Assembly (NCBI GenBank): GCA_964586355.1
Contig: CAZPGO010000005.1
Coordinates: forward strand, 23,640 to 55,639
Direction of reading: 5' to 3'
Source: an uncultured archaeon
GTDB taxonomy: Archaea > Iainarchaeota > Iainarchaeia > Iainarchaeales > CSSED10-239
DNA: 32,000 nucleotides
In this document: positions 4,030-29,087 of the stretch, in pieces
How the letters are laid out: each line of letters begins with the position of its first letter
How positions within the stretch are numbered: the first letter of the stretch is position 1
Position numbers and translations under genes: made by a program
The notes under the pieces: model-generated
The model's input: the letters and a program-made list of their open reading frames with translations, nothing else
The model's database searches: none
Told to the model about the DNA's origin: nothing

Positions 4030-4103
4030 GGGGCTGTAGTGTAGTCTGGTCATCACGAGAGCTTTGGGAGCTTTTAACCCCAGTTCAAATCTGGGCAGCC
4101 TCA
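4030..4103 (+). tRNA. tRNA-Pro (anticodon UGG), no encoded CCA, no intron
   Basis: Hand-folded cloverleaf. Acceptor GGGGCUG/CAGCCUC (one G-U), anticodon stem AGAGC/GCUUU with loop UUUGGGA (UGG at 34-36), T arm CCCAG-UUCAAAU-CUGGG, discriminator A. It is followed by CTTTTT. Confidence 0.9.
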
Positions 4104-4130
4104 CTTTTTGTATATGGGTGATTTTTTGCA

Positions 4131-4844: not shown

Positions 4845-6308
4845 ATGGTATCAAGTCAAGAACTAAAAATAGAAGAATTTAATGAATGGTTTAATGATAT
4901 TATATCTAGAGCAGAACTTGCAGACTTAAGATATAATATCAAAGGAATGGTTGTTTATAGACCTTGGTCAACATACACTATAAACAAAATATTTAGATTA
5001 TATGAAGATATTTTTGATGATACTGGTCATCAACAAGTAATTATGCCGTTATTGATACCAGAAGAAAACTTTTTTAAAGAAAAAGAGCATGTAGAAGGAT
5101 TTACTCCAGAAGTGTTTTGGGTAACAGAGCATGGAGAAGAAAAATTTGAAACAAAATATGCTTTAAGACCAACAAGTGAGACAGCTTTTTATTATATGTA
5201 TAGTTTATGGGTTGATAGTCATAGAGATTTGCCATACAAAAACTATCAAAGAGCAAATATCTTTAGATATGATACCAAGGCAACAAAACCTTTTTTTAGA
5301 GGAAGAGAATTTTATTTTTTTGAAAGTCATAATCTTTTTGAAAGTTATGAAGAATCTTATCAACAGGTATTAGAAGATATGCAAATTACTGAAGATATTA
5401 TACATGTAGATCTTGCAATACCATTTATTTTCTTTAACAGACCACAATGGGATAAATTTCCTGGAGCAATTAATACTTATGGTGCTGATGCTTTAATGCC
5501 AAATGGTAAAACCACCCAAATAGTTACCACCCACACACTAGGTCAAAATTTTACAAAGCCTTTTGATGTTAAAATAAAAAATATTGATGAAGAAGTAGTG
5601 TATCCATATGGTACTTGTCATGGACCAGGAATAACTAGAATATATGGTGCATTAATTAGTATTCATGGAGATAAGATTGGTCTAAGACTTCCTTTTAATC
5701 TAGCACCAACACAAATAATAATCACCCCATTATATTTTACTGGTTGTAATCTAGAAAAAATAGAAAAAGTTTGTTTAGATTTTGCAACAGATTTAGATAA
5801 GCTTGGATATAAAGTAAAAATAGATGATTCAAAAGAAAAAAGACCAAAAGAAAGATTTGAGTACTATGAGATGAAAGGAGTACCTATAAGAATAGAAGTT
5901 GGTCCAAAAGATATAGATGATGGATCTGTTTTAATATTTAGAAGAGACACAAATGAAAAAACAAGAGTCTGCTTTGCAGATGTTTTTGAAGAAATTAAAA
6001 ATATTTCTGAAAGTTTTACAAATAATTTAAGAGATCAAGCAGATCAAGAGTTTGATGAAAGATTAGTAAGTGTGGATTCTTATAAAGATCTTAAAGAAGA
6101 ACTAGAAAAAGGAAAATTAATTAGAATACCTTTCTGTTCTATAGATTTTGATGGAAAAACCTGTGCCGATAAACTAAAAGCAGAAACAAATGGTGGAGAG
6201 ATTAGAGGAACAAGAATGGATATTACTGAAGTTCCTGAGGACTCCCAAAAATGTTTGATCTGTAATAAAAAAGCAAATGTTTTTGTTTATGTTGCAAAAA
6301 GTTATTAA
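4845..6308 (+). CDS. proS: Prolyl-tRNA synthetase, archaeal/eukaryote-like type
   Basis: Class II core (LRPTSETAFY, FRYDTKATKPFFRGREFYFFESH, GTCHGPGITRIYGALI), anticodon-binding domain, and the Cys-containing C-terminal domain ending in Tyr (CLICNKKANVFVYVAKSY) typical of the archaeal type. Confidence 0.92.
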   Translation: MVSSQELKIEEFNEWFNDIISRAELADLRYNIKGMVVYRPWSTYTINKIFRLYEDIFDDTGHQQVIMPLLIPEENFFKEKEHVEGFTPEVFWVTEHGEEKFETKYALRPTSETAFYYMYSLWVDSHRDLPYKNYQRANIFRYDTKATKPFFRGREFYFFESHNLFESYEESYQQVLEDMQITEDIIHVDLAIPFIFFNRPQWDKFPGAINTYGADALMPNGKTTQIVTTHTLGQNFTKPFDVKIKNIDEEVVYPYGTCHGPGITRIYGALISIHGDKIGLRLPFNLAPTQIIITPLYFTGCNLEKIEKVCLDFATDLDKLGYKVKIDDSKEKRPKERFEYYEMKGVPIRIEVGPKDIDDGSVLIFRRDTNEKTRVCFADVFEEIKNISESFTNNLRDQADQEFDERLVSVDSYKDLKEELEKGKLIRIPFCSIDFDGKTCADKLKAETNGGEIRGTRMDITEVPEDSQKCLICNKKANVFVYVAKSY

Positions 6309-13802: not shown

Positions 13803-15065
13803 TTATTCATATCTTAAAGCATCAACTGGTTTTAGTTTTGCTGCTCTGTACGCTGGTATAAATCCAGATAACACACTAATTCCAACAGCTATTACTATGC
13901 CGTAAATGGCTAATGCAAAAGAAAACGAACCTTCACCACCAATTCTCATAACCATTCCAATTCCAATGCTATTTCCTAAATATCCAGACAATACAGATCC
14001 AATTAATACTCCTAAAAATCCGCCAACTAGTCCATATAGTGAAGAAACTAATATAAATAAAAATAATATATCAAAACTACTTGCTCCAATAGATTTCATA
14101 ATACCAATCTCTTTAGTCTTTTCAAGAACTGATGTAAACATTGTGTTTGCTATTCCAATTGCACCTACAATTAAAGAAATTGCTGCAATTATTGTAAGAA
14201 ACATTATCATAGAGTTAGTCATTTCATTAATAGATTCAATATTATCTTTTATTGCAGAAACTGAAAAATCCTTTTGTCTTTCTGAAATTATTCTTCTTGA
14301 AAACATAAGTTTTGTATTTATTATTTCAACAATTTCATCAACTTTATTTATTTCATCAACTTTTATTGTAATTTTATCGTATTCATTAATTGTTTTTTCC
14401 TCTAAGGTAACAAAAGTAACATCTAAAGGGGCAATTACTTCGGCACTATTTTTTATAATTCCAACTACTCTAAAAGATTTATTATTAATAGTAATAATAG
14501 TATTTAATGGTATTTTTTTAGAAAAACTATCTTTAGCTAATCTTTCTCCAATTAAAACACTGTATTTGTCTGATGGCCCTAATAATCTGCCATTAGTTAA
14601 TTCAATGTTAGTTATTTTTAACCAATTAATAACATCTACACCAGTTATAGATCTTTTAATAGATTCGCCAGTAAAATATATTTCTGTTTGTCCAGATATT
14701 TCTTTATTTATTGCATTTATTCCTGGTATTGTTTTTAGAGTTGAAATATCTTTTTCAGTTAAAACAACAGAAGAAGATGTGCTTTCAGGAATTCTAGTTA
14801 TACCGCCAGGCATACCACCTCCCCTTCCGCCCCCACCAATACCTATTACTTCTGTGGCTCTACTAAATCCAGGGGTTATATTTATTACATCCAGTTGCAT
14901 TGTTGCGGTTCTACTTTGAATACTATCTTCCATTCCTTGACCTAGTGCTAATATAGCAACAAAAGAGCTCACTCCTACAATTATTCCTAAAATAGTAAGC
15001 CAACTTCTGATTTTGCTATGAAATACTGAGTTTAGTGCTAATGAAAGAATTGTAATTAATTTCAT
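13803..15065 (-). CDS. ABC transporter permease, MacB/FtsX type
   Basis: TM1, about 240 aa of extracytoplasmic domain, then three C-terminal TMs. Has the FtsX-like KEIGIMKSIGASSFDILFLF and the canonical C-terminus PAYRAAKLKPVDALRYE. Contains a Gly-rich insert, IGIGGGGRGGGMPGGI. Confidence 0.85.
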   Translation of the reverse strand: MKLITILSLALNSVFHSKIRSWLTILGIIVGVSSFVAILALGQGMEDSIQSRTATMQLDVINITPGFSRATEVIGIGGGGRGGGMPGGITRIPESTSSSVVLTEKDISTLKTIPGINAINKEISGQTEIYFTGESIKRSITGVDVINWLKITNIELTNGRLLGPSDKYSVLIGERLAKDSFSKKIPLNTIITINNKSFRVVGIIKNSAEVIAPLDVTFVTLEEKTINEYDKITIKVDEINKVDEIVEIINTKLMFSRRIISERQKDFSVSAIKDNIESINEMTNSMIMFLTIIAAISLIVGAIGIANTMFTSVLEKTKEIGIMKSIGASSFDILFLFILVSSLYGLVGGFLGVLIGSVLSGYLGNSIGIGMVMRIGGEGSFSFALAIYGIVIAVGISVLSGFIPAYRAAKLKPVDALRYE

Positions 15066-21011: not shown

Positions 21012-21036
21012 AATTATTAAAAAAATAAATTAGGAT

Positions 21037-22389
21037 ATGGTAAAAATGATAGATTTTGTGTTTGGTTCTCAATGGGGAGATGAAGGAAAGGGTAAAATAA
21101 TTGATTATCTTACTCAAAAGTCAGATGTTGTTTTAAAACATCATGGCGGTGCAAATGCAGGGCACACAATATATGTAAATGATGAAAAATTTGTTTTTCA
21201 TTTAATACCTGGGGGAATATTACATAATGATAAACTTTGTGTTATTGGTAATGATACTGTTTTAGATTTGTTAACATTAAAAGACGAAATTTCTTTTTTA
21301 AAAAGTAAAAATATTTCTTATAAAAATAGATTGTTTATTGGTCAAAAAGCACATATTACTTTTCCATATCATAGATTATTGGATGTTGCATTAGAAATAA
21401 AAAAAGGAAAAGGTGCTGTTGGTACAACCGCAAGAGGAATAGGTCCTACCTATGCTGATAAAATAAACAGAATTGGAATTACTGCTTATGATTTATTAAA
21501 TAAAAAAAAATTGAGAGAAAAGTTAATTGTGGCAAGTAATTCTGCAATAGATGTTGTGAAAAAAGTTTATGGAGTTAATAATAATAAAATTAAAGAGATC
21601 TTATCTAATTTTAATTATTTAGATTTTAATGCAGATGTGTTTTATGATTCTAAGAAAATATTAAATATAGATAAGATGGTTGATACATATTATGCTATTG
21701 GTCAGGAACTTAAAAAAAATGTTGTTGATGTAACATTATTTATGAATACTAAATTAGAAATAAATAAAAAAATACTAGCAGAAGGATCTCATGGTATACA
21801 GTTAGACATTAATTATGGCACTTATCCTTTTGTAACAACCTCTGTATGTACTGTTGGAAATGTTTTTTCTTCTGTTGGTGTTTCTTCTAGATATTTAAAT
21901 AAATCTATAGGTATTGTTAAAGCATATACTACCAGGGTTGGTGCAGGTCCATTTCCTACCGAATTAAATGATTGTGTTGGCAAATATTTACAAGAAAATG
22001 GAAAAGAATTTGGTGCCACAACAGGAAGAAAAAGAAGATGTGGTTGGTTAGATTTATCGCTTATTAGGCATGCTAAGATGTTAAATGGTATGACTGAAAT
22101 TGCATTAACAAAAATTGATGTTCTTACAAGTTTAAAAAAAATTAAAGTTTCTGTTGGTTATAAGTTAAAGAATGGCTCTATAATTAAGCATGTGCCTTAT
22201 GATCTTTATGATGTTAAACCAGTCTATAAAGAATTATCTGGTTGGAATGAAAATATCAGTAATATAAAAAAATATACTGATCTTCCATCAAATCTAAAGA
22301 AATATATTGAATTTATAGAAAAAGAAATTGGTGTGAAAGTAAAATATATATCTGTTGGACCAAATAGAGATCAAACAATAATAAGATAA
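21037..22389 (+). CDS. purA: Adenylosuccinate synthetase
   Basis: GSQWGDEGKGKIIDYL, GGANAGHTI, TTARGIGPTYADK and GATTGRKRRCGWLDL. The alternative start at 21046 (MIDF...) cannot be excluded. Confidence 0.92.
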   Translation: MVKMIDFVFGSQWGDEGKGKIIDYLTQKSDVVLKHHGGANAGHTIYVNDEKFVFHLIPGGILHNDKLCVIGNDTVLDLLTLKDEISFLKSKNISYKNRLFIGQKAHITFPYHRLLDVALEIKKGKGAVGTTARGIGPTYADKINRIGITAYDLLNKKKLREKLIVASNSAIDVVKKVYGVNNNKIKEILSNFNYLDFNADVFYDSKKILNIDKMVDTYYAIGQELKKNVVDVTLFMNTKLEINKKILAEGSHGIQLDINYGTYPFVTTSVCTVGNVFSSVGVSSRYLNKSIGIVKAYTTRVGAGPFPTELNDCVGKYLQENGKEFGATTGRKRRCGWLDLSLIRHAKMLNGMTEIALTKIDVLTSLKKIKVSVGYKLKNGSIIKHVPYDLYDVKPVYKELSGWNENISNIKKYTDLPSNLKKYIEFIEKEIGVKVKYISVGPNRDQTIIR

Positions 22390-22399
22390 ATGATTTTTA

Positions 22400-23107
22400 A
22401 TGAGATTTAAATTAGTAAAGAAAAAAGCAGTTAGCTCAAAAAAACCAGTAAAACCAATAAATTCTAAAAGCAAAAATAAAAGTGGTATAATTTTAAGATC
22501 TTTTAGAGCATTTGTAAAAAAAAAGATTTTACCAAAAATAAAAATAGTTGGTGAAAACTTAATTTCTCAAGAATTAAATAAAGGGCCAGTTGTTATTTTA
22601 AGTAGTCATAATTTTAAGAACGATTATTTTCTAATAGAAGCAATTTCCCCTAAGCATGTTTTTGCTATTGGAGATCCAGGTGTTGCAATTAAACAAGGAA
22701 CATATATAAGGGGTTTTAATATTCCTGGGGTAAGAGAATTAATGCATCAATTAGGAATAATAGAAATAAATAGAAAAAAACCAGCTGCTGGATTAAGATC
22801 TGCAATTGAAAATAGTGTTAGTTTATTAGAAAAAGGAGAAGCAATTTGTATTTTTCCAAAAGGCTATGGAGGAAAAGCAGGAACTGCAAGAGATCAAAGT
22901 TTAGGCGAAAGTACTAGTAGAAGTAGTGCTTTATTTATTTTACAAGAAGCAGAAAAAAGATTAGGCAAAAAAATTCCAATTGTTTTTGTGAGATCTGTAG
23001 ATTCTAAAGAAGGAGTTCTTATGAAAATGGAAAAAGGCTTTTTGCCAGAAAAGTTTGATCGTAAAAAATTAGCTTTAGATTATATTGATAAAATAGAAAA
23101 CCTATAA
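22400..23107 (+). CDS. PlsC-like (lysophospholipid) acyltransferase-family protein with a Lys-rich N-terminus
   Basis: VVILSSHNFKNDYF contains the HX4D motif, and ICIFPKGYGG resembles the FPEG block. Family-level call only. Confidence 0.5.
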   Translation: MRFKLVKKKAVSSKKPVKPINSKSKNKSGIILRSFRAFVKKKILPKIKIVGENLISQELNKGPVVILSSHNFKNDYFLIEAISPKHVFAIGDPGVAIKQGTYIRGFNIPGVRELMHQLGIIEINRKKPAAGLRSAIENSVSLLEKGEAICIFPKGYGGKAGTARDQSLGESTSRSSALFILQEAEKRLGKKIPIVFVRSVDSKEGVLMKMEKGFLPEKFDRKKLALDYIDKIENL

Positions 23108-24688
23108 CTTTTTTCTATTTCTTATTTGTCTATTATAAGTTATGGCAAATCTATGAGCCTCATCCCTTATTCTTTGAAGAAGTTGTAAAGATTGATCTTT
23201 TTTAGACAATTTAATTGGAAAAAGATTATCAACTTTAAATATTTCTTCATCCCTTTTTGCAAGAGAAATTAGATCTATCTTATCTAAGACATCTAGTTCT
23301 TTTAAAATCTCTTTAGCACAAGATAATTGGCCCTTACCACCATCAATAACAATTAGGTTTGGAAGATCTTTTTTTTCTTTAACTAGTCTAGAATATCTTC
23401 TTTTAACAACCTCTTTAATAGAAGAAAAATCATCAATCTTATCTTTAGGTAAAGATCTTATCTTAAATTTTCTATAATTTTTTTTATCTGGTAGGCCATT
23501 TTTAAAATAAACCATAGAACCAACAGTGTCTTTTCCAGAAAAATGAGATATATCAAAGCATTCTATAACTTTTGGCAAATATTTAAGATTAAGTTTTTTT
23601 TTAAGATCTTCTAATATTAGTTCATTTTTAAAGAAATTAAGTTCAATATTTTTTTTACAAAGATCAAGAAGTTCTTTTTTTTCTCCTTTTTTCGGAATTG
23701 TTATTTTTAGATTAGATATTTTTATGTGCTCTAAATACTTAATTGTATTTGAATCTATTTTTTTAGACAATATGATCTCTTTAGGTATTACATTATTAGA
23801 ATAATAATTAATTAAAAAATCATCCATTATAGATATATCAATTAAATTAATATCTATTTTTTTATCTATTTTATTTACTAATGTTCCTTTATCTATATTA
23901 AATAATAATACATATGCAATATTTTCTTTAATAATGAAATCAACAACATCCTGATCATAGGTTTTTTTTGTTTCAACATTTTGTTTTTCTGTTAAATATT
24001 TTATGGCTGTTATTTGATCTCTTAATATTAGAGATCTTTCAAAGTTTTTTTTATTTGTATATTCTTTCATTTTTTTATTAAGCTCTTCTATTAACTCAGC
24101 ACTTTTACCAGAAAGTATTTTTTTTATGTGTTCAATAATTTCTTGATATTCTTTTTCAGTGATTTTTTTAATACATGGTGCAGAGCAATAACCAATATGA
24201 TATCTTATACAGGGAGTTTTTGGTAATCTTTTACAAGTTCTTAATTTAAAGGTTTTATTTAGATATTTAATAAGATTAGATCTATTTTGTCCAGAAACAA
24301 AAGGCCCAAAAACATTTTCATCTTTTAAATCTGGTTTTTCTCTTTGTGTTAATAATCTTGGAAATTTTTCTGGACTTATTTTTATGTAAGCATACCTTTC
24401 TGAGTTTTTTAGATCTATGTTGTATTTAGGTAAATGTTTTTTTATTAAAGTGTTTTCTAGAATTAATGCTTCAAGCTCATTATTAGTAACAATAAAATCA
24501 ATATTAGAAATATTTGAAATTAAGCTTTGTGTTTTTGGTGTTTGATCTTTATTTAAAAAATAAGAAGACACTCTTTTTTTCAGATTTTTGGCTTTTCCAA
24601 CATAAATAATTGAATTTTCTTTATCTTTATAGATATAACATCCAGGGTTATTTGGTATTTTACTTAGATCAATCATACTTTTTACCAT
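23102..24688 (-). CDS. uvrC: Excinuclease ABC subunit C, short form without a C-terminal (HhH)2 domain
   Basis: GIY-YIG (PGCYIYKDKENSIIYVGKAKNLKKRVSSYF), Cys cluster (RTCKRLPKTPCIRYHIGYCSAPC), UVR domain (FERSLILRDQITAIKYL), and the endonuclease-V-like domain ending DEAHRFAITYNRQIRNRKKL. Confidence 0.9.
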   Translation of the reverse strand: MVKSMIDLSKIPNNPGCYIYKDKENSIIYVGKAKNLKKRVSSYFLNKDQTPKTQSLISNISNIDFIVTNNELEALILENTLIKKHLPKYNIDLKNSERYAYIKISPEKFPRLLTQREKPDLKDENVFGPFVSGQNRSNLIKYLNKTFKLRTCKRLPKTPCIRYHIGYCSAPCIKKITEKEYQEIIEHIKKILSGKSAELIEELNKKMKEYTNKKNFERSLILRDQITAIKYLTEKQNVETKKTYDQDVVDFIIKENIAYVLLFNIDKGTLVNKIDKKIDINLIDISIMDDFLINYYSNNVIPKEIILSKKIDSNTIKYLEHIKISNLKITIPKKGEKKELLDLCKKNIELNFFKNELILEDLKKKLNLKYLPKVIECFDISHFSGKDTVGSMVYFKNGLPDKKNYRKFKIRSLPKDKIDDFSSIKEVVKRRYSRLVKEKKDLPNLIVIDGGKGQLSCAKEILKELDVLDKIDLISLAKRDEEIFKVDNLFPIKLSKKDQSLQLLQRIRDEAHRFAITYNRQIRNRKKL

Positions 24689-24947
24689 AAATCTTATCTC
24701 TATGTTCTAGATATCTAAATATTATTCTGTTATTTTTTTTATCCACAAAAAATATTAAAATAAATTGTTCAGTAATATGAATTCTTTTATATTTTTGTAA
24801 AGGTTTTTTATGATTTTTATAATGATCTAAAAATTTGTTTTTTTTAATTTCGTCTATTTTTGTGAACAAGTAAATAGCTAATGATTTATTCTTTAAAGAT
24901 AATTTTTTAATTATTTTATCTAATTCCGGATGGATCTCATATTCCAT
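24669..24947 (-). CDS. RelE/ParE-superfamily-like toxin (92 aa)
   Basis: Size and pattern resemble archaeal RelE: ...KKLSLKNKSLAIYLFTKIDEIKKN...LQKYKRIHITEQFILIFFVDKKNNRIIFRYLEHRDKIY. It starts 1 nt after the upstream antitoxin-like ORF, and its 3' end overlaps the uvrC start. Confidence 0.62.
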   Translation of the reverse strand: MEYEIHPELDKIIKKLSLKNKSLAIYLFTKIDEIKKNKFLDHYKNHKKPLQKYKRIHITEQFILIFFVDKKNNRIIFRYLEHRDKIYGKKYD

Positions 24948-24948
24948 A

Positions 24949-25197
24949 TTAGTAATCTATTTTATATCTTTTTTTAAGTTCGTCGACAGATTTGAATTTT
25001 ATTCCTGATTTATATTTTTTATCGCCATCTAATATTTTCTTAACAAATTCTGGTCTTAATTCAGGTTCAAGATTTGTTTCAGAATATTTTGTTACAACTA
25101 AAGTTATTGCTTCGGCTTTGTTTTTTAGATTATGTTGTGCTTTTATGATATTTAAGGTTTGATTAATTTCAATGGGTAGATCGATTAATGCTTTCAT
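24949..25197 (-). CDS. Antitoxin-like small DNA-binding protein (RHH / DUF2683-like)
   Basis: MKALIDLPIEINQTLNIIKAQHNLKNKAEAITLVV... GGAGG lies 8 nt upstream of ATG 25197. The ORF track extends to 25248, but that extension is hydrophobic and AT-rich. A paralogous remnant sits at 906..1064. Confidence 0.6.
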   Translation of the reverse strand: MKALIDLPIEINQTLNIIKAQHNLKNKAEAITLVVTKYSETNLEPELRPEFVKKILDGDKKYKSGIKFKSVDELKKRYKIDY

Positions 25198-25261
25198 GTA
25201 CTTTGCCTCCATTAATATTCGTATATATATATTAATAGTTGTTAACATTTATTAACTTTCC

Positions 25262-28078
25262 TTATTTAATAATTTTCTTTAAAAAATCTCCAGTATAACT
25301 TTTTTTATTTTTAATAATTTCTTCTGGTGTGCCTTTACAAATAACCTCTCCCCCATATTTTCCACCATCTGGGCCAAGATCTATTATATAATCACAAGAT
25401 TTTATTACATCTAGATTGTGTTCAATAACAACAACAGTATTTCCTTTCTTAACTAACCGATCAAGAACCTCAATTAGTTTTTTAACATCATGAAAATGCA
25501 AACCAGTTGTTGGTTCATCTAAAAGATAAATGGTATTACCTGTATCTCTTTTAGATAGCTCTTTAGTTAACTTTATTCTTTGAGCTTCACCACCAGATAA
25601 AGTTACAGAATTTTGACCAAGTTTAATATAGGATAAACCAACATCCATTAATGTTTTTAGTTTTCTTTTTAAAGAAGGAATATTTTCAAAAAAGTAATAA
25701 GCTTCTTCTACTGACATATCAAGAACCTCAGCAATATTTTTATCTTTATATTTTATTTCTAAGGTTTTAGAATTAAATCTTTTACCCTTACACTCCTCAC
25801 AATCAACATAAATGTCAGGCAAAAAGTTCATCTCAATTTTTATTTGTCCATCACCTTGACAAGCTTCACATCTCCCACCTTTAACATTAAATGAAAATCT
25901 TCCAGAATTATATCCTCTAATCTTAGAATCTTCTAATTTACTAAATAAATCTCTAATATCATCAAGAACTTTGGTGTAAGTTGCTGGGTTTGATTTAGGT
26001 GTTCGTCCAATAGGAGATTGATCTATAGATATTACCTTGTCTATTTTTTCAGGGACATCTATATTTTTTACTTTGCCAATATTCATTTTTGATCTATAAA
26101 ATTTATTCATTAAAAAAGGATATAAGGTTTCATAAATTAAAGAAGATTTTCCAGATCCAGAAACACCAGTTACACAACTAAATACCCCAATTGGAATATC
26201 TATGTTAATATTTTTTAAATTATTTTCTTCGGCTCCAATTATTTTTATAAACTCTTTAGTTTTTCTTCTGTCTTTTGGAATTTCAATAAATTGAGTCCCG
26301 CAAAGATATTGACCTGTTAGTGATTCTTTATTAGCCATTATCTCCTTAGGTGTGCCAATAGCTATAATCTTTCCACCATGTATTCCTGCACCAGGACCAA
26401 TATCAATAACATAATCTGCTTGTTTTATTGTATCTTCATCATGTTCAACAACAATTACAGAATTACCAATATCTCTTAACTTACACAAAGTATCAATTAG
26501 TTTTTGATTATCTTTTTGATGCAAACCAATAGATGGCTCATCAAGAACATATAAGACACCAGTTAGATTAGTTCCAAGATTTGTTGCAAGTCTTATTCTT
26601 TGTGCTTCTCCACCAGATAATGTCCCTGTATTTCTGGATAATGTTAGATATCCTAAACCCACTTTTTCTAAAAACTCTAATCTAGAATTAATTTCTTTTA
26701 GAATATGTTTTGCGATTTCTTCTTCTTTTTTAGATAATTTTAATTTTTTAAAAAAATCTACTAATTCTAAGATAGAGAGATCTGTTAAATCAACAATTGA
26801 TTTATTAGCAATTTTTACATATAAGATTTTCTTTTTTAATCTTTTTCCATTACAAACCGTACAAGGAGAACTGTTCATGAATTTTTCCATTTCTGTTCTT
26901 CTGTATTCAGATTCTGTTTGTTTATATAGTCTTTGTGTTTGTGGAAGTAGTCCTTCCCAATTACCTGTGTAGTTAAAACTAGAAGTTCCATTTTTTCCAT
27001 TTAAATTAAAATTAATATTATCCTCTGAGCCGTACATTAATATTTTATATTGCTTTTCAGTTAGATCTTTTATTGGAGTTAAAGCAGAAAAACCATATTT
27101 CTTTGCAATTGTTGCAAGATGTTGTCCTCTCCAACCATCAATTGCATTTCTGTATATTGCTATTGCTCCATCAGCAATAGATTTATTTTTATCAGGAATT
27201 ATTAGATTTTCATCAAAATCCATCTTTATTCCAAGACCAGAACACTCTTCACAAGCCCCAAAAGGAGAATTAAAAGAAAACATTCTTGGTTGTAGTTCTT
27301 CAAAGGATAAACCACAGATTGGACAAGACATTTTAGAAGAATAGATCTTTTCTTTATTATCTATTAATATCTTAACTATTCCATCAGTGGATCTTTTTAT
27401 AGCAAGTTCAACATTTTCGACAATTCTAGATTTGTTTTCTTGATCTACTTTTATTTTATCAATTATAATATCAATATCATGCATTTTATATCTGTCAAGA
27501 ATTATTTTTTCATCAGTTCTTTTATTTTCATTGTTAACCCTTACTCTGGTGTATCCTTCTTTATTTAGATCTAAAAATAATTTTTCATAAGTTCCTTTTT
27601 TCTTTTGAATTATTGGGCAAAGAATAGTTATTTCTTTATTTAAGAATTCATTAAAGACATTTTCTGAAATTTTTTGAGGACTCATGGCTTGTATTTTTAT
27701 GTTGTGTTCTGGGCAATAAGCAGTTCCAACTCTTGCATACAATAATCTTAGATAATCATAAATTTCAGTAACCGTTCCAACTGTAGATCTTGGGTTTTTT
27801 GAAGTTGTTTTCTGTTCTATTGATATTGCTGGAGATAATCCTTCAATAGAATCAACATCTGGTTTTTTCATCATACCTAGAAACTGTCTAGCATAGCTTG
27901 ATAATGATTCAATATATCTTCTTTGGCCATCTGCATAGATAGTGTCAAATGCCAACGTTGATTTGCCAGATCCTGATAATCCAGTGATTATAACTAATTT
28001 TTCCTTAGGGATCTCTAGATCTATGTTTTTAAGGTTGTGCTCTCTTGCACCTTTAATAATTATTGATTTTGAAGTCAT
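25262..28078 (-). CDS. uvrA: Excinuclease ABC subunit A
   Basis: 938 aa with two ABC modules ([33 protein letters not shown]; LSGGEAQRIRLA, LSGGEAQRIKLT) and CxxC zinc modules (CPICG...CEEC, CTVCNG, CEACQGDG...CEECKG). Confidence 0.95.
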   Translation of the reverse strand: MTSKSIIIKGAREHNLKNIDLEIPKEKLVIITGLSGSGKSTLAFDTIYADGQRRYIESLSSYARQFLGMMKKPDVDSIEGLSPAISIEQKTTSKNPRSTVGTVTEIYDYLRLLYARVGTAYCPEHNIKIQAMSPQKISENVFNEFLNKEITILCPIIQKKKGTYEKLFLDLNKEGYTRVRVNNENKRTDEKIILDRYKMHDIDIIIDKIKVDQENKSRIVENVELAIKRSTDGIVKILIDNKEKIYSSKMSCPICGLSFEELQPRMFSFNSPFGACEECSGLGIKMDFDENLIIPDKNKSIADGAIAIYRNAIDGWRGQHLATIAKKYGFSALTPIKDLTEKQYKILMYGSEDNINFNLNGKNGTSSFNYTGNWEGLLPQTQRLYKQTESEYRRTEMEKFMNSSPCTVCNGKRLKKKILYVKIANKSIVDLTDLSILELVDFFKKLKLSKKEEEIAKHILKEINSRLEFLEKVGLGYLTLSRNTGTLSGGEAQRIRLATNLGTNLTGVLYVLDEPSIGLHQKDNQKLIDTLCKLRDIGNSVIVVEHDEDTIKQADYVIDIGPGAGIHGGKIIAIGTPKEIMANKESLTGQYLCGTQFIEIPKDRRKTKEFIKIIGAEENNLKNINIDIPIGVFSCVTGVSGSGKSSLIYETLYPFLMNKFYRSKMNIGKVKNIDVPEKIDKVISIDQSPIGRTPKSNPATYTKVLDDIRDLFSKLEDSKIRGYNSGRFSFNVKGGRCEACQGDGQIKIEMNFLPDIYVDCEECKGKRFNSKTLEIKYKDKNIAEVLDMSVEEAYYFFENIPSLKRKLKTLMDVGLSYIKLGQNSVTLSGGEAQRIKLTKELSKRDTGNTIYLLDEPTTGLHFHDVKKLIEVLDRLVKKGNTVVVIEHNLDVIKSCDYIIDLGPDGGKYGGEVICKGTPEEIIKNKKSYTGDFLKKIIK

Positions 28079-28168
28079 TTTTTTCGTATTTTCTTTTTTT
28101 CTATTTAAAGTTATAAAAATTAGATGTTATATATAATATATGATAAAAACATTATATATTCTTTTCTA

Positions 28169-28289
28169 GGGGGGTCTTGTCCACTGGAGCCTTTCTTAAA
28201 AAGAAAGCCTCGGGAAAGAACAAAAATGGTTACGCTTTTGTTGACACGCAATATAACCGGTTACGCTCGGTTAACGCGCAATTATAAGT
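28169..28289. other. GC-rich non-coding island: G6 run, imperfect hairpin and a tandem 31-bp repeat; candidate small RNA or regulator-binding array
   Basis: G6 at 28169..28174. Hairpin at 28187..28211 (GAGCCTTTCTT-AAA-AAGAAAGCCTC, 10 bp plus one C-C mismatch). Repeats at 28228..28258 (ggttacgcttttgttgacacgcaatataacc) and 28259..28289 (ggttacgctcggttaacgcgcaattataagt). Palindrome TAACCGGTTA at 28254..28263 spans the repeat junction. G+C is far above the neighbourhood. Confidence 0.6.
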
Positions 28290-28325
28290 TTATGCAAAAA
28301 CGAGATCAGAAAAAGTTTAATCAAA

Positions 28326-28348
28326 GAACCTTTTTCAAAAAAAGGTTC
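28326..28348 (-). terminator. Stem-loop (GAACCTTTTT / AAAAAGGTTC) followed on the minus strand by a T-rich stretch; likely terminator of the 28395..29087 gene
   Basis: 9-10 bp perfect stem with a 3-nt loop, 47 nt downstream of the minus-strand stop. On the minus strand it continues TTTGATTAAACTTTTTC. Confidence 0.45.
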
Positions 28349-28394
28349 ATCAAAAATGAAATAAAAAAATTAAGTGAAAATGAAATTAAAACAA

Positions 28395-29087
28395 TTATTT
28401 GTAAAACAAATGTGGGTTTTTATCTACAAATTTATTAATTAAACCATTTAAAAGAAACTGATCACCTTTTTTGAGATAAATGTATCCTAAAATAGATGCA
28501 AATAAAGCACCAATTGTGTCAAGTATAAAATCAATCATGGTGTCAATTACTCCAAGCCTAGTATTACAATATCCTTCGTTTGGACATAGATCTCTTGATT
28601 TTTGCATATTCATACCAAACATAGAATCCATTCCAAATTCAAACATTTCCCAAATAGCTCCAAAAGATAAAGTTATTAAAAAAATAATTAGACAAATAAA
28701 AAACGGGCTAGTTTTTATTTTTTCAGTTTTATATAAAACAGACATTATTCCAAAAACAATTAAACCAAGAGCAAAACCAGAAAATAAATGTAATAATGAA
28801 TCCCACCACCAAAATTTAAAATAAAAATTTCGCACCTCTCCTAAAAATACACCAGCATAAATAAAAAGTATTATTGTTATTTGTATTTCTGATGGTAGAA
28901 AAATACGATATCTTTTTTGAAAAAAATAAGGAATAAATATTAAAATAGTTGCAAGAATTGTTACAAAGAAAAAGTCCCAACGTTTGTTGAAGAATTCCAA
29001 AATTAATGCAATTATTAGTGTAAGTACTATAAAATAAGTTATATATTTCTGAATTCTATCAAAACCAACAACACTTTTTTTAACCAT
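28395..29087 (-). CDS. Multi-pass membrane protein of unknown function (possibly YjdF/DUF2238-like)
   Basis: About six hydrophobic helices, with conserved-looking polar motifs WWWDSLLHLFSGF and WEMFEFGMD...DTMIDFILDTIG. The family assignment is from memory and weak. Confidence 0.55.
   Translation of the reverse strand: MVKKSVVGFDRIQKYITYFIVLTLIIALILEFFNKRWDFFFVTILATILIFIPYFFQKRYRIFLPSEIQITIILFIYAGVFLGEVRNFYFKFWWWDSLLHLFSGFALGLIVFGIMSVLYKTEKIKTSPFFICLIIFLITLSFGAIWEMFEFGMDSMFGMNMQKSRDLCPNEGYCNTRLGVIDTMIDFILDTIGALFASILGYIYLKKGDQFLLNGLINKFVDKNPHLFYK

Follow-up and report, generated by a model that had tools for sequence, protein, structure and literature searches.

The two small open reading frames (ORFs) between uvrA and uvrC in a 32,000-nucleotide (nt) stretch of DNA from an uncultured archaeon (GenBank assembly GCA_964586355.1, contig CAZPGO010000005.1; the whole stretch is called the window below) quite probably form a type II toxin–antitoxin (TA) module, a hitch-hiking addiction cassette; a wiring of this module to excision repair is not favoured. 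The pair is a known kind of system in a new context, the uvrA–uvrC junction of an Iainarchaeota lineage. It is read as a passenger because the cassette is mobile, because its decay in one close relative leaves uvrA and uvrC untouched, and because it is linked to uvrA and not to uvrC and abuts other housekeeping genes in compact DPANN genomes.

An earlier, sequence-only reading of the same DNA had described four genes on the minus strand, uvrA, an antitoxin-like ORF, a RelE-like ORF and uvrC, and had placed the host among DPANN archaea. The layout and its coordinates are confirmed from the ORFs and the sequence, the host placement holds, the naming of the pair as RelE-like toxin and antitoxin is upheld by the evidence given below, and to call it an insertion between the two repair genes is reasonable. 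Of the two explanations offered there, a hitch-hiking addiction cassette and a link between repair and growth arrest, the former is preferred here: the cassette is mobile, decayed in a relative and found in unrelated contexts.

Toxin

On its predicted fold and on transitive homology the toxin belongs to the RelE/ParE superfamily, the curated Pfam models being unmatched. The AlphaFold2 model (mean predicted local distance difference test score, pLDDT, 88) has a strand at residues 2–5, helices at 7–19 and 21–36, and strands at 54–57, 62–69 and 74–82; the RelE/ParE fold is an antiparallel beta-sheet with two N-terminal helices packed on it. All of the best 50 matches of the model in the PDB are RelE/ParE-fold toxins (YoeB, YafQ, RelE, ParE, HigB or close kin), with template modelling (TM) scores of 0.56–0.77.

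The sequence matches the NCBIfam model TIGR00053 (YafQ family) over positions 4–91 of 92 with E 1.4e-12, at 48 bits and thus below the curated cut-off of 87.25. The toxin itself has no Pfam match at E ≤ 0.01; its one weaker hit, Toxin_YhaV, has E 0.035, and PF15738 is not matched. An exhaustive search returned 111 relatives, 70 of which were used to build a family profile; among these 70, Pfam ParE_toxin (PF05016; best E 1.5e-11) is matched by 39 and YafQ_toxin (PF15738) by 22. Compared with the PDB sequences, the family profile finds Helicobacter pylori HP0892 (2otr, E 5.9e-6) and YafQ (9lew, E 0.021; 4ml0, E 0.039). The profile was needed for this, a search of the PDB sequences with the single toxin sequence returning nothing. 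The profile searches proposed in the sequence-only reading therefore came out clearly for the antitoxin (see below) and in part for the toxin, which matches TIGR00053 over its full length, below the cut-off, and lacks a Pfam match.

The toxin is presumed to be a ribosome-dependent mRNA endonuclease. The catalytic residues of Escherichia coli YafQ are His50, His63, Asp67, His87 and Phe91. When the window toxin is compared with 4ml0_B through the family profile and the family alignment, His57 takes the place of His63 and Tyr87 that of Phe91; Arg83 (RelE-like) stands for His87 and Gln61 for Asp67, and His50 lies in an insertion absent from the toxin family. The residues that are near-invariant in the family, His57, His82, Asp84 and Tyr87, are all kept. 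Residue 46 is His (codon at 24810..24812) and is Leu in >90% of the 70 relatives, the closest two included; the change yields YKNH, which recalls the YKDH of YafQ, although the register relative to the PLQ motif differs.

Across the window and two relatives, the ratio of non-synonymous to synonymous substitution rates (dN/dS) is 0.18–0.31 for the toxin and 0.05–0.06 for the antitoxin, so that the toxin evolves faster. Both ratios are well below 1, and on this comparison the two small ORFs are functional genes under purifying selection. A metagenome survey with 10 close toxin-family sequences as queries gave 80 toxin-family loci; in 65 of these the toxin homologue is immediately preceded by a DUF2683-like ORF, and in 74 a small ORF of any kind lies upstream. 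PADLOC returned nothing for the pair, PHROGs one non-significant toxin match (E 0.24), and a scan of viral contigs no toxin relative; by the first two results, neither a catalogued defence system nor a phage origin is indicated.

Antitoxin

The antitoxin matches Pfam PF10884 (DUF2683) at 37.6 bits, against a gathering threshold of 27 (E 2.6e-9; profile positions 4–66 of 66). Its homologues at E ≤ 0.001 number 73, and several belong to Nanoarchaeota or Woesearchaeota records. Its AlphaFold2 model (pLDDT 81) consists of an extended N-terminus, two helices and then two C-terminal helices. Foldseek matches of this model are not significant (best E 0.55); the list includes the ribbon-helix-helix (RHH) antitoxins VapB, DinJ, AtaR and ParD as well as CopG and NikR, whose superposition covers the first ~40 residues at 1–2 Å. 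Because of this superposition, the N-terminal part is likely an RHH DNA-binding domain, and the C-terminal helices of the model are presumed to bind the toxin. A profile of the antitoxin finds only chance-level matches among the PDB sequences, e.g. ribosomal protein S17 at E 0.24.

Two starts had been left open for this gene, ATG 25197 (82 amino acids, aa) and ATG 25248 (99 aa). The former is most likely used, since homologues begin at the same Met and a GGAGG precedes it. The longer form is rejected: its ATG falls within a conserved motif that is non-coding, and in one of the uvrA-linked relatives (L097) this ATG is out of frame.

In the literature searched, DUF2683 is covered by nothing beyond a survey of domains of unknown function. 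With the present pairing, the Pfam family would gain a role, that of an archaeal antitoxin partner of YafQ-like toxins.

Upstream region

The spacer from the end of uvrA to the antitoxin start is a putative promoter plus antitoxin operator. It contains a conserved 27-nt motif, TTAATAAATGTTAACAACTATTAATAT, at 25255..25229, which includes a GTTAAC palindrome; an AT-rich TATA-like run, ATTAATATATATATAC, at 25236..25221; a perfect 8-bp inverted repeat, ATTAATAT/ATATTAAT (25236..25229 and 25218..25211), flanking this run; and GGAGG at 25210..25206, 8 nt ahead of ATG 25197. The ribosome-binding site and TATA-like run noted in the sequence-only reading are thereby located in a conserved region with palindromes. 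The 27-nt motif occurs once in the window and in none of 100 shuffles, and it is exact in all uvrA-linked cassettes, i.e. in the two close relatives that keep the complete locus (L001, L089) and in three metagenomic loci (L096–L098). Repeats of TATTAAT/GTTAAC type are also found upstream of cassettes unlinked to uvrA. A scan for bacterial sigma-70 promoters and intrinsic terminators, a type unsuited to an archaeon, gave 8 sites against 8.7 expected, and 0 terminators.

Residues 1–35 of the antitoxin are identical between the window and the L096–L098 lineages. The C-terminal third of the antitoxin is replaced in these lineages (KKYKSGIKFKSVDELKKRYKIDY vs. NKITYKFKDMDEFDKIVKKHGKR), alongside a toxin that is 55–62% identical. 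Between the clades, then, antitoxin tail and toxin changed together while the motif and the first 35 residues stayed fixed. An autoregulated TA operon would be expected to show this pattern, its operator and DNA-binding domain held constant while the neutralisation interface co-evolves.

uvrA–uvrC junctions in relatives and other archaea

The junction was compared with 59 other archaeal uvrC loci, mostly from Bathyarchaeia. At 39 of these uvrA lies directly upstream with an estimated spacer of 44–53 nt and without a cassette, and 12 have larger spacers. Since uvrA and uvrC are directly adjacent at most of the loci, it is reasonable to regard the cassette as an insertion between them. Two observations concern other occupants of this spacer: a truncated ORF with a PIN domain, VapC-like, occupies it at L036:4852-5175, and an ASCH-domain gene fills it at L031:5669-6004, abutting both neighbours (loci from metagenome-assembled genomes, MAGs, of Bathyarchaeia and Aenigmatarchaeota). 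The uvrA–uvrC spacer seems to accept inserts repeatedly.

Close relatives show the cassette in different states. The order uvrA, DUF2683 gene, toxin gene, uvrC is kept in L001 (UvrC ~92% identical over the intact N-terminal half) and L089 (UvrC 88%). Several indels of one base each, mostly beside A-runs, break the uvrC of L001 (L001:2696-4267) into three ORFs, which may reflect sequencing error or real pseudogenisation; the cassette of L001 is intact. A further part of the window, ~21013..22764 (most of purA and part of an acyltransferase gene), is without a counterpart in L001.

In L090 (UvrC 87%, UvrA 91%) the uvrA–uvrC spacer measures 239 nt (L090:2999-3237, equivalent to window 24677..25261) and holds a decayed cassette. 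Its 5' block, 73 nt, matches the putative promoter and the opening codons of the antitoxin gene, whose ATG has become ATA; its 3' block, ~120 nt, matches toxin codons ~40–85 at ~88% identity, with frame-breaking deletions and a mutated His57 codon; ~330 nt are deleted between the blocks. Both uvrA (940 aa) and uvrC (519 aa) of L090 are intact.

At greater distance the two repair genes part company. In L092 and L093 (UvrC 67–69%) uvrC stands alone with its own AT-rich upstream region; its downstream neighbours are syntenic with the window and its upstream neighbours differ. In L096–L098 (three of the 80 metagenomic toxin-family loci) uvrA is followed by the cassette (UvrA 77–81%, antitoxin 74–77%, toxin 55–62% identical), the identical 27-nt motif lying 6 nt past the uvrA stop, and what comes after the cassette is not uvrC but either a gene with an HD domain or a convergent gene. 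A survey of these junctions, as the sequence-only reading had suggested, therefore bears out the arrangement in two relatives, L001 and L089, and not in the others: the cassette is decayed in L090, uvrC is alone in L092 and L093, and uvrC is not the next gene in L096–L098. Two histories are possible: the cassette was inserted between adjacent uvrA and uvrC, and uvrC later moved away in lineages of the L097 type; or uvrA with its TA pair was later fused to uvrC by deletion.

Cassettes of the family also occur away from uvrA. In another DPANN genome (L095:6001-6536) one ends 2 nt before a Glu/Gln-tRNA synthetase gene; its toxin is 58% identical, has the same KKYD end, and carries Tyr at the near-invariant His82 position. 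Related cassettes are present in TA islands (L008, L176) and in further unrelated contexts. A distant cassette (antitoxin 43%, toxin 42%) lies ~110 nt upstream of a uvrA start on the same strand (L142:610-1376) and may be a second, independent uvrA association, on a short contig. By a rough estimate, adjacency of the TA family to uvrA is not significantly above chance, L142 being the only independent case among ~75 other loci; L096–L098 were counted together with the window as one event because they share its junction.

Toxin–uvrC overlap

For uvrC, too, two starts had been considered, ATG 24688 (528 aa) and ATG 24676 (MIDLSK...), giving an overlap with the toxin gene of 20 or 8 nt. The second is most likely the start, because it gives the N-terminus common to most homologues listed and is the sole start available in L090. 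The 528-aa form is rejected, the upstream ATG being missing in L090 and the N-termini of homologues fitting 24676. A uvrC start at 24676 reduces the overlap from 20 to 8 nt (ATGATTGA): the uvrC ATG sits within the final toxin codons, and uvrC codons 2–3 make up the toxin stop TGA.

The two gene ends resemble each other. In relatives whose toxin gene has its native 3' end (L097, L095), this end, tATGATTAAttt, is identical to the uvrC start, ATGATTGATTT, at 10 of 11 nt; TATGATTAA at the native toxin end hardly differs from ATGATTGAT at the uvrC start. Deletion or recombination across this microhomology would give exactly the junction seen, ...TATGATTGATTT. Because the two ends are nearly equal, such a fusion costs neither protein a residue: the window toxin keeps its ...KKYD end and its length of 92 aa, as in L095, and UvrC keeps MIDL. 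An overlap explained by microhomology needs no selective explanation. More generally, an 8-nt gene overlap can arise in this way with both proteins unchanged.

Locus and host

Coordinates are collected in Table 1. A single base (24948) separates antitoxin and toxin genes, which are co-directional, the antitoxin first. UvrA is full length, with Pfam UvrA_inter and UvrA_DNA-bind recorded for an identical product, and is 59–61% identical to UvrA of Bathyarchaeia. UvrC, as the 528-aa product, is full length as well, with Pfam GIY-YIG, UvrC_M and UvrC_RNaseH recorded and UVR as a faint match.

Table 1 Features of the uvrA–uvrC junction. Positions are those of the window.
Feature	Position	Strand	Description
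uvrA	25262..28078	-	ORF, 938 aa; upstream neighbour of the cassette; stop TAA 25264..25262
Cassette upstream region	25198..25261	-	64 nt, from uvrA stop to antitoxin ATG
Antitoxin	24949..25197	-	82 aa, DUF2683 family
Toxin	24669..24947	-	92 aa, RelE/ParE fold, YafQ-like; ATG at 24947
Toxin/uvrC overlap	24669..24676	-	8 nt, ATGATTGA
uvrC	23102..24676	-	524 aa; 528 aa if ATG 24688 used

The host is a member of Iainarchaeota, within DPANN/Nanobdellati, since the nearest species-representative genome is a 'Candidatus ainarchaeum' MAG (UvrC 88% identical). A 108-kb Joint Genome Institute (JGI) contig contains the identical window sequence, which recurs in other data sets. The G+C content of the window is ~25%, and composition shows no break at the cassette.

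The remaining genes of the window are ordinary housekeeping genes: DNA ligase, KaiC-like ATPase, ScpAB, Lon-like protease, ABC transporter, peroxiredoxin and PurA, and four ORFs of aminoacyl-tRNA-synthetase type (a His-like fragment, Ala, Pro, plus others nearby). A tRNA-Pro(TGG) gene at 4030..4104, the sole match in an Rfam scan of the window, lies ~740 nt upstream of the prolyl-tRNA synthetase gene (4845..6308) on the same strand; a 202-aa ORF without known family separates the two. Two plus-strand ORFs may be spurious, one of 104 aa without family match at 28124..28438, in the gap upstream of uvrA, and one of 337 aa at 13906..14919, antisense inside an FtsX/MacB permease gene.

Discussion

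In the proposed mechanism, an antitoxin dimer would bind the palindromic upstream motif and repress the pair, and the antitoxin would neutralise the toxin via its C-terminal helices; upon loss of the labile antitoxin, the toxin would cleave translated mRNAs and growth would arrest. The cassette is seen as probably selfish. It would persist through addiction, and also because imprecise deletions would harm uvrA or uvrC. The toxin gene overlaps uvrC, and a scan, of bacterial type only, showed no terminator-like element in the way; the two genes therefore probably share a transcript, unless a promoter lies within the toxin gene. Such co-transcription would be a by-product of the position of the cassette in a very compact genome and would not mean that repair is tied to growth arrest by design. 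Promoter supply and translational coupling to uvrC are nevertheless plausible, and the cassette promoter could contribute to uvrC expression.

Several observations pull the other way. The L090 remnant is retained just upstream of uvrC, with a TATA-like ATATTTAGA ~20–30 nt before the ATG, so that some of its sequence may by now have a part in expressing uvrC. A place 3' of uvrA has been kept by the module over lineages whose UvrA proteins are only 77–81% identical to that of the window, with no change in the upstream motif or in antitoxin residues 1–35 over this range; many TA modules do not persist so long at a single site, and the retention could point to some benefit. The toxin has Arg83 and Gln61 at YafQ catalytic positions, and His46 for the Leu of >90% of relatives; because of these departures from YafQ and family residues, activity of the window toxin is assumed.

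Among the alternatives to a passenger cassette, its co-option to drive uvrC, as an internal promoter that responds to stress and as a translational coupler, deserves some weight, unlikely as we hold it to be. Antitoxin degraded under stress would derepress the promoter, uvrC would go up and the toxin would slow growth, linking excision repair to growth arrest in an archaeon without a LexA-type SOS system. One transcript is most likely, given the 8-nt overlap and the lack of a terminator-like site between uvrA and uvrC; the promoter/operator motif shows strict conservation, the module has long been linked to uvrA, the remnant in L090 is retained, and a bacterial precedent exists in yafNO, induced with dinB by DNA damage (PMC2814082). 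Yet the intact module is dispensable, having decayed in L090 while uvrA and uvrC remained intact; in L096–L098 it follows uvrA but precedes unrelated genes; uvrC relatives at 67–69% identity stand alone with AT-rich upstream regions of their own; and elsewhere a cassette sits against a tRNA synthetase gene, which would be expected if cassettes land at random in compact genomes. These facts speak against the proposal in the sequence-only reading that repair is wired through the module. The more specific idea that the conserved promoter/operator has been co-opted as a stress-sensing internal promoter, antitoxin proteolysis raising uvrC while the toxin pauses translation, is a little more doubtful again; if true, it would be a damage- or stress-inducible repair switch for an SOS-less archaeon, built from an addiction module.

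That the pair is domesticated and non-toxic, its nuclease activity lost and the proteins kept as a transcriptional regulator of the region downstream of uvrA, appears very unlikely. It would fit Arg83 in place of YafQ His87, Gln61 in place of Asp67 and the missing His50 equivalent, His46 where >90% of relatives have Leu, the Tyr at near-invariant His82 in the L095 toxin, and a toxin that evolves faster than its antitoxin. But the toxin dN/dS of 0.18–0.31 still shows constraint, His57, His82, Asp84 and Tyr87 are all present, and between clades the toxin has diverged in step with the C-terminal part of the antitoxin, as expected for continued neutralisation; in RelE-type toxins, moreover, an Arg at the position of Arg83 acts catalytically. 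Hardly any credence is left for chance ORFs in an AT-rich spacer. The one thing that speaks for them is that the window toxin itself matches no Pfam family, whereas the family matches are significant, dozens of homologues are paired elsewhere, the models are confident and dN/dS is low; at a genome G+C of ~25%, stop-free stretches of this length are not expected by chance.

Read as an addiction cassette, the locus and its relatives provide a natural series of the life cycle of such an element in a reduced DPANN genome: insertion or fusion in an operon spacer, purifying selection, co-divergence of toxin and antitoxin tail while operator and DNA-binding domain stay frozen, and decay in one lineage. 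The understanding of nucleotide excision repair is unchanged at present; control of uvrC by the cassette promoter, if it exists, would bear on the regulation of repair in archaea without LexA.

Comparison with known systems

The pair most resembles, in its proteins, DinJ-YafQ (E. coli, Vibrio cholerae) and H. pylori HP0892/HP0894. Shared features are a toxin of ~90 aa with RelE/ParE fold (TM 0.6–0.72), the antitoxin gene coming first, an antitoxin N-terminus that is apparently RHH-type like that of DinJ, the full-length match to TIGR00053, and His57/Tyr87 as equivalents of YafQ His63/Phe91. The window toxin differs in scoring 48 bits, below the family cut-off of 87, in lacking a Pfam YafQ_toxin match, in Arg83 and Gln61, and in having no equivalent of His50; the window antitoxin is DUF2683, without sequence match to DinJ or any solved structure, and its host is archaeal. 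The archaeal RelBE systems (Pyrococcus horikoshii aRelE-aRelB, 1wmi, TM 0.66; Methanocaldococcus jannaschii, 3bpq, TM 0.64, 22% identity) have the same fold, ~90-aa toxins and two-gene cassettes, but other antitoxin families and contexts unrelated to uvr, and neither 1wmi nor 3bpq was recovered by the sequence-profile search.

For the context, the sequence-only reading knew of no precedent. A literature search on TA modules, uvrA/uvrC and archaea gave no obvious TA module between uvr genes, judged from titles and the openings of abstracts, and to that extent the statement stands; in a wider sense it does not, as yafNO lies in the E. coli dinB (DNA polymerase IV) operon, where DNA damage leads to its transcription from the dinB promoter, and the mRNA interferases listed as SOS-induced include dinJ-yafQ (PMC2814082). 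yafNO is the closest described contextual precedent, a RelE-related TA pair with its own proximal promoter inside a DNA-damage-response operon. Its operon is bacterial and LexA-regulated, whereas the genes of the window are archaeal nucleotide-excision-repair genes, and here the toxin gene overlaps the downstream repair gene by 8 nt. Insert-free uvrA–uvrC pairs from MAGs of Bathyarchaeia and Aenigmatarchaeota, finally, have the same order and strand (UvrA 57–61%, UvrC 40–44% identical) and differ in their spacer, 44–53 nt at 39 of 59 loci as against the 585 nt, filled by the TA pair, of the window.

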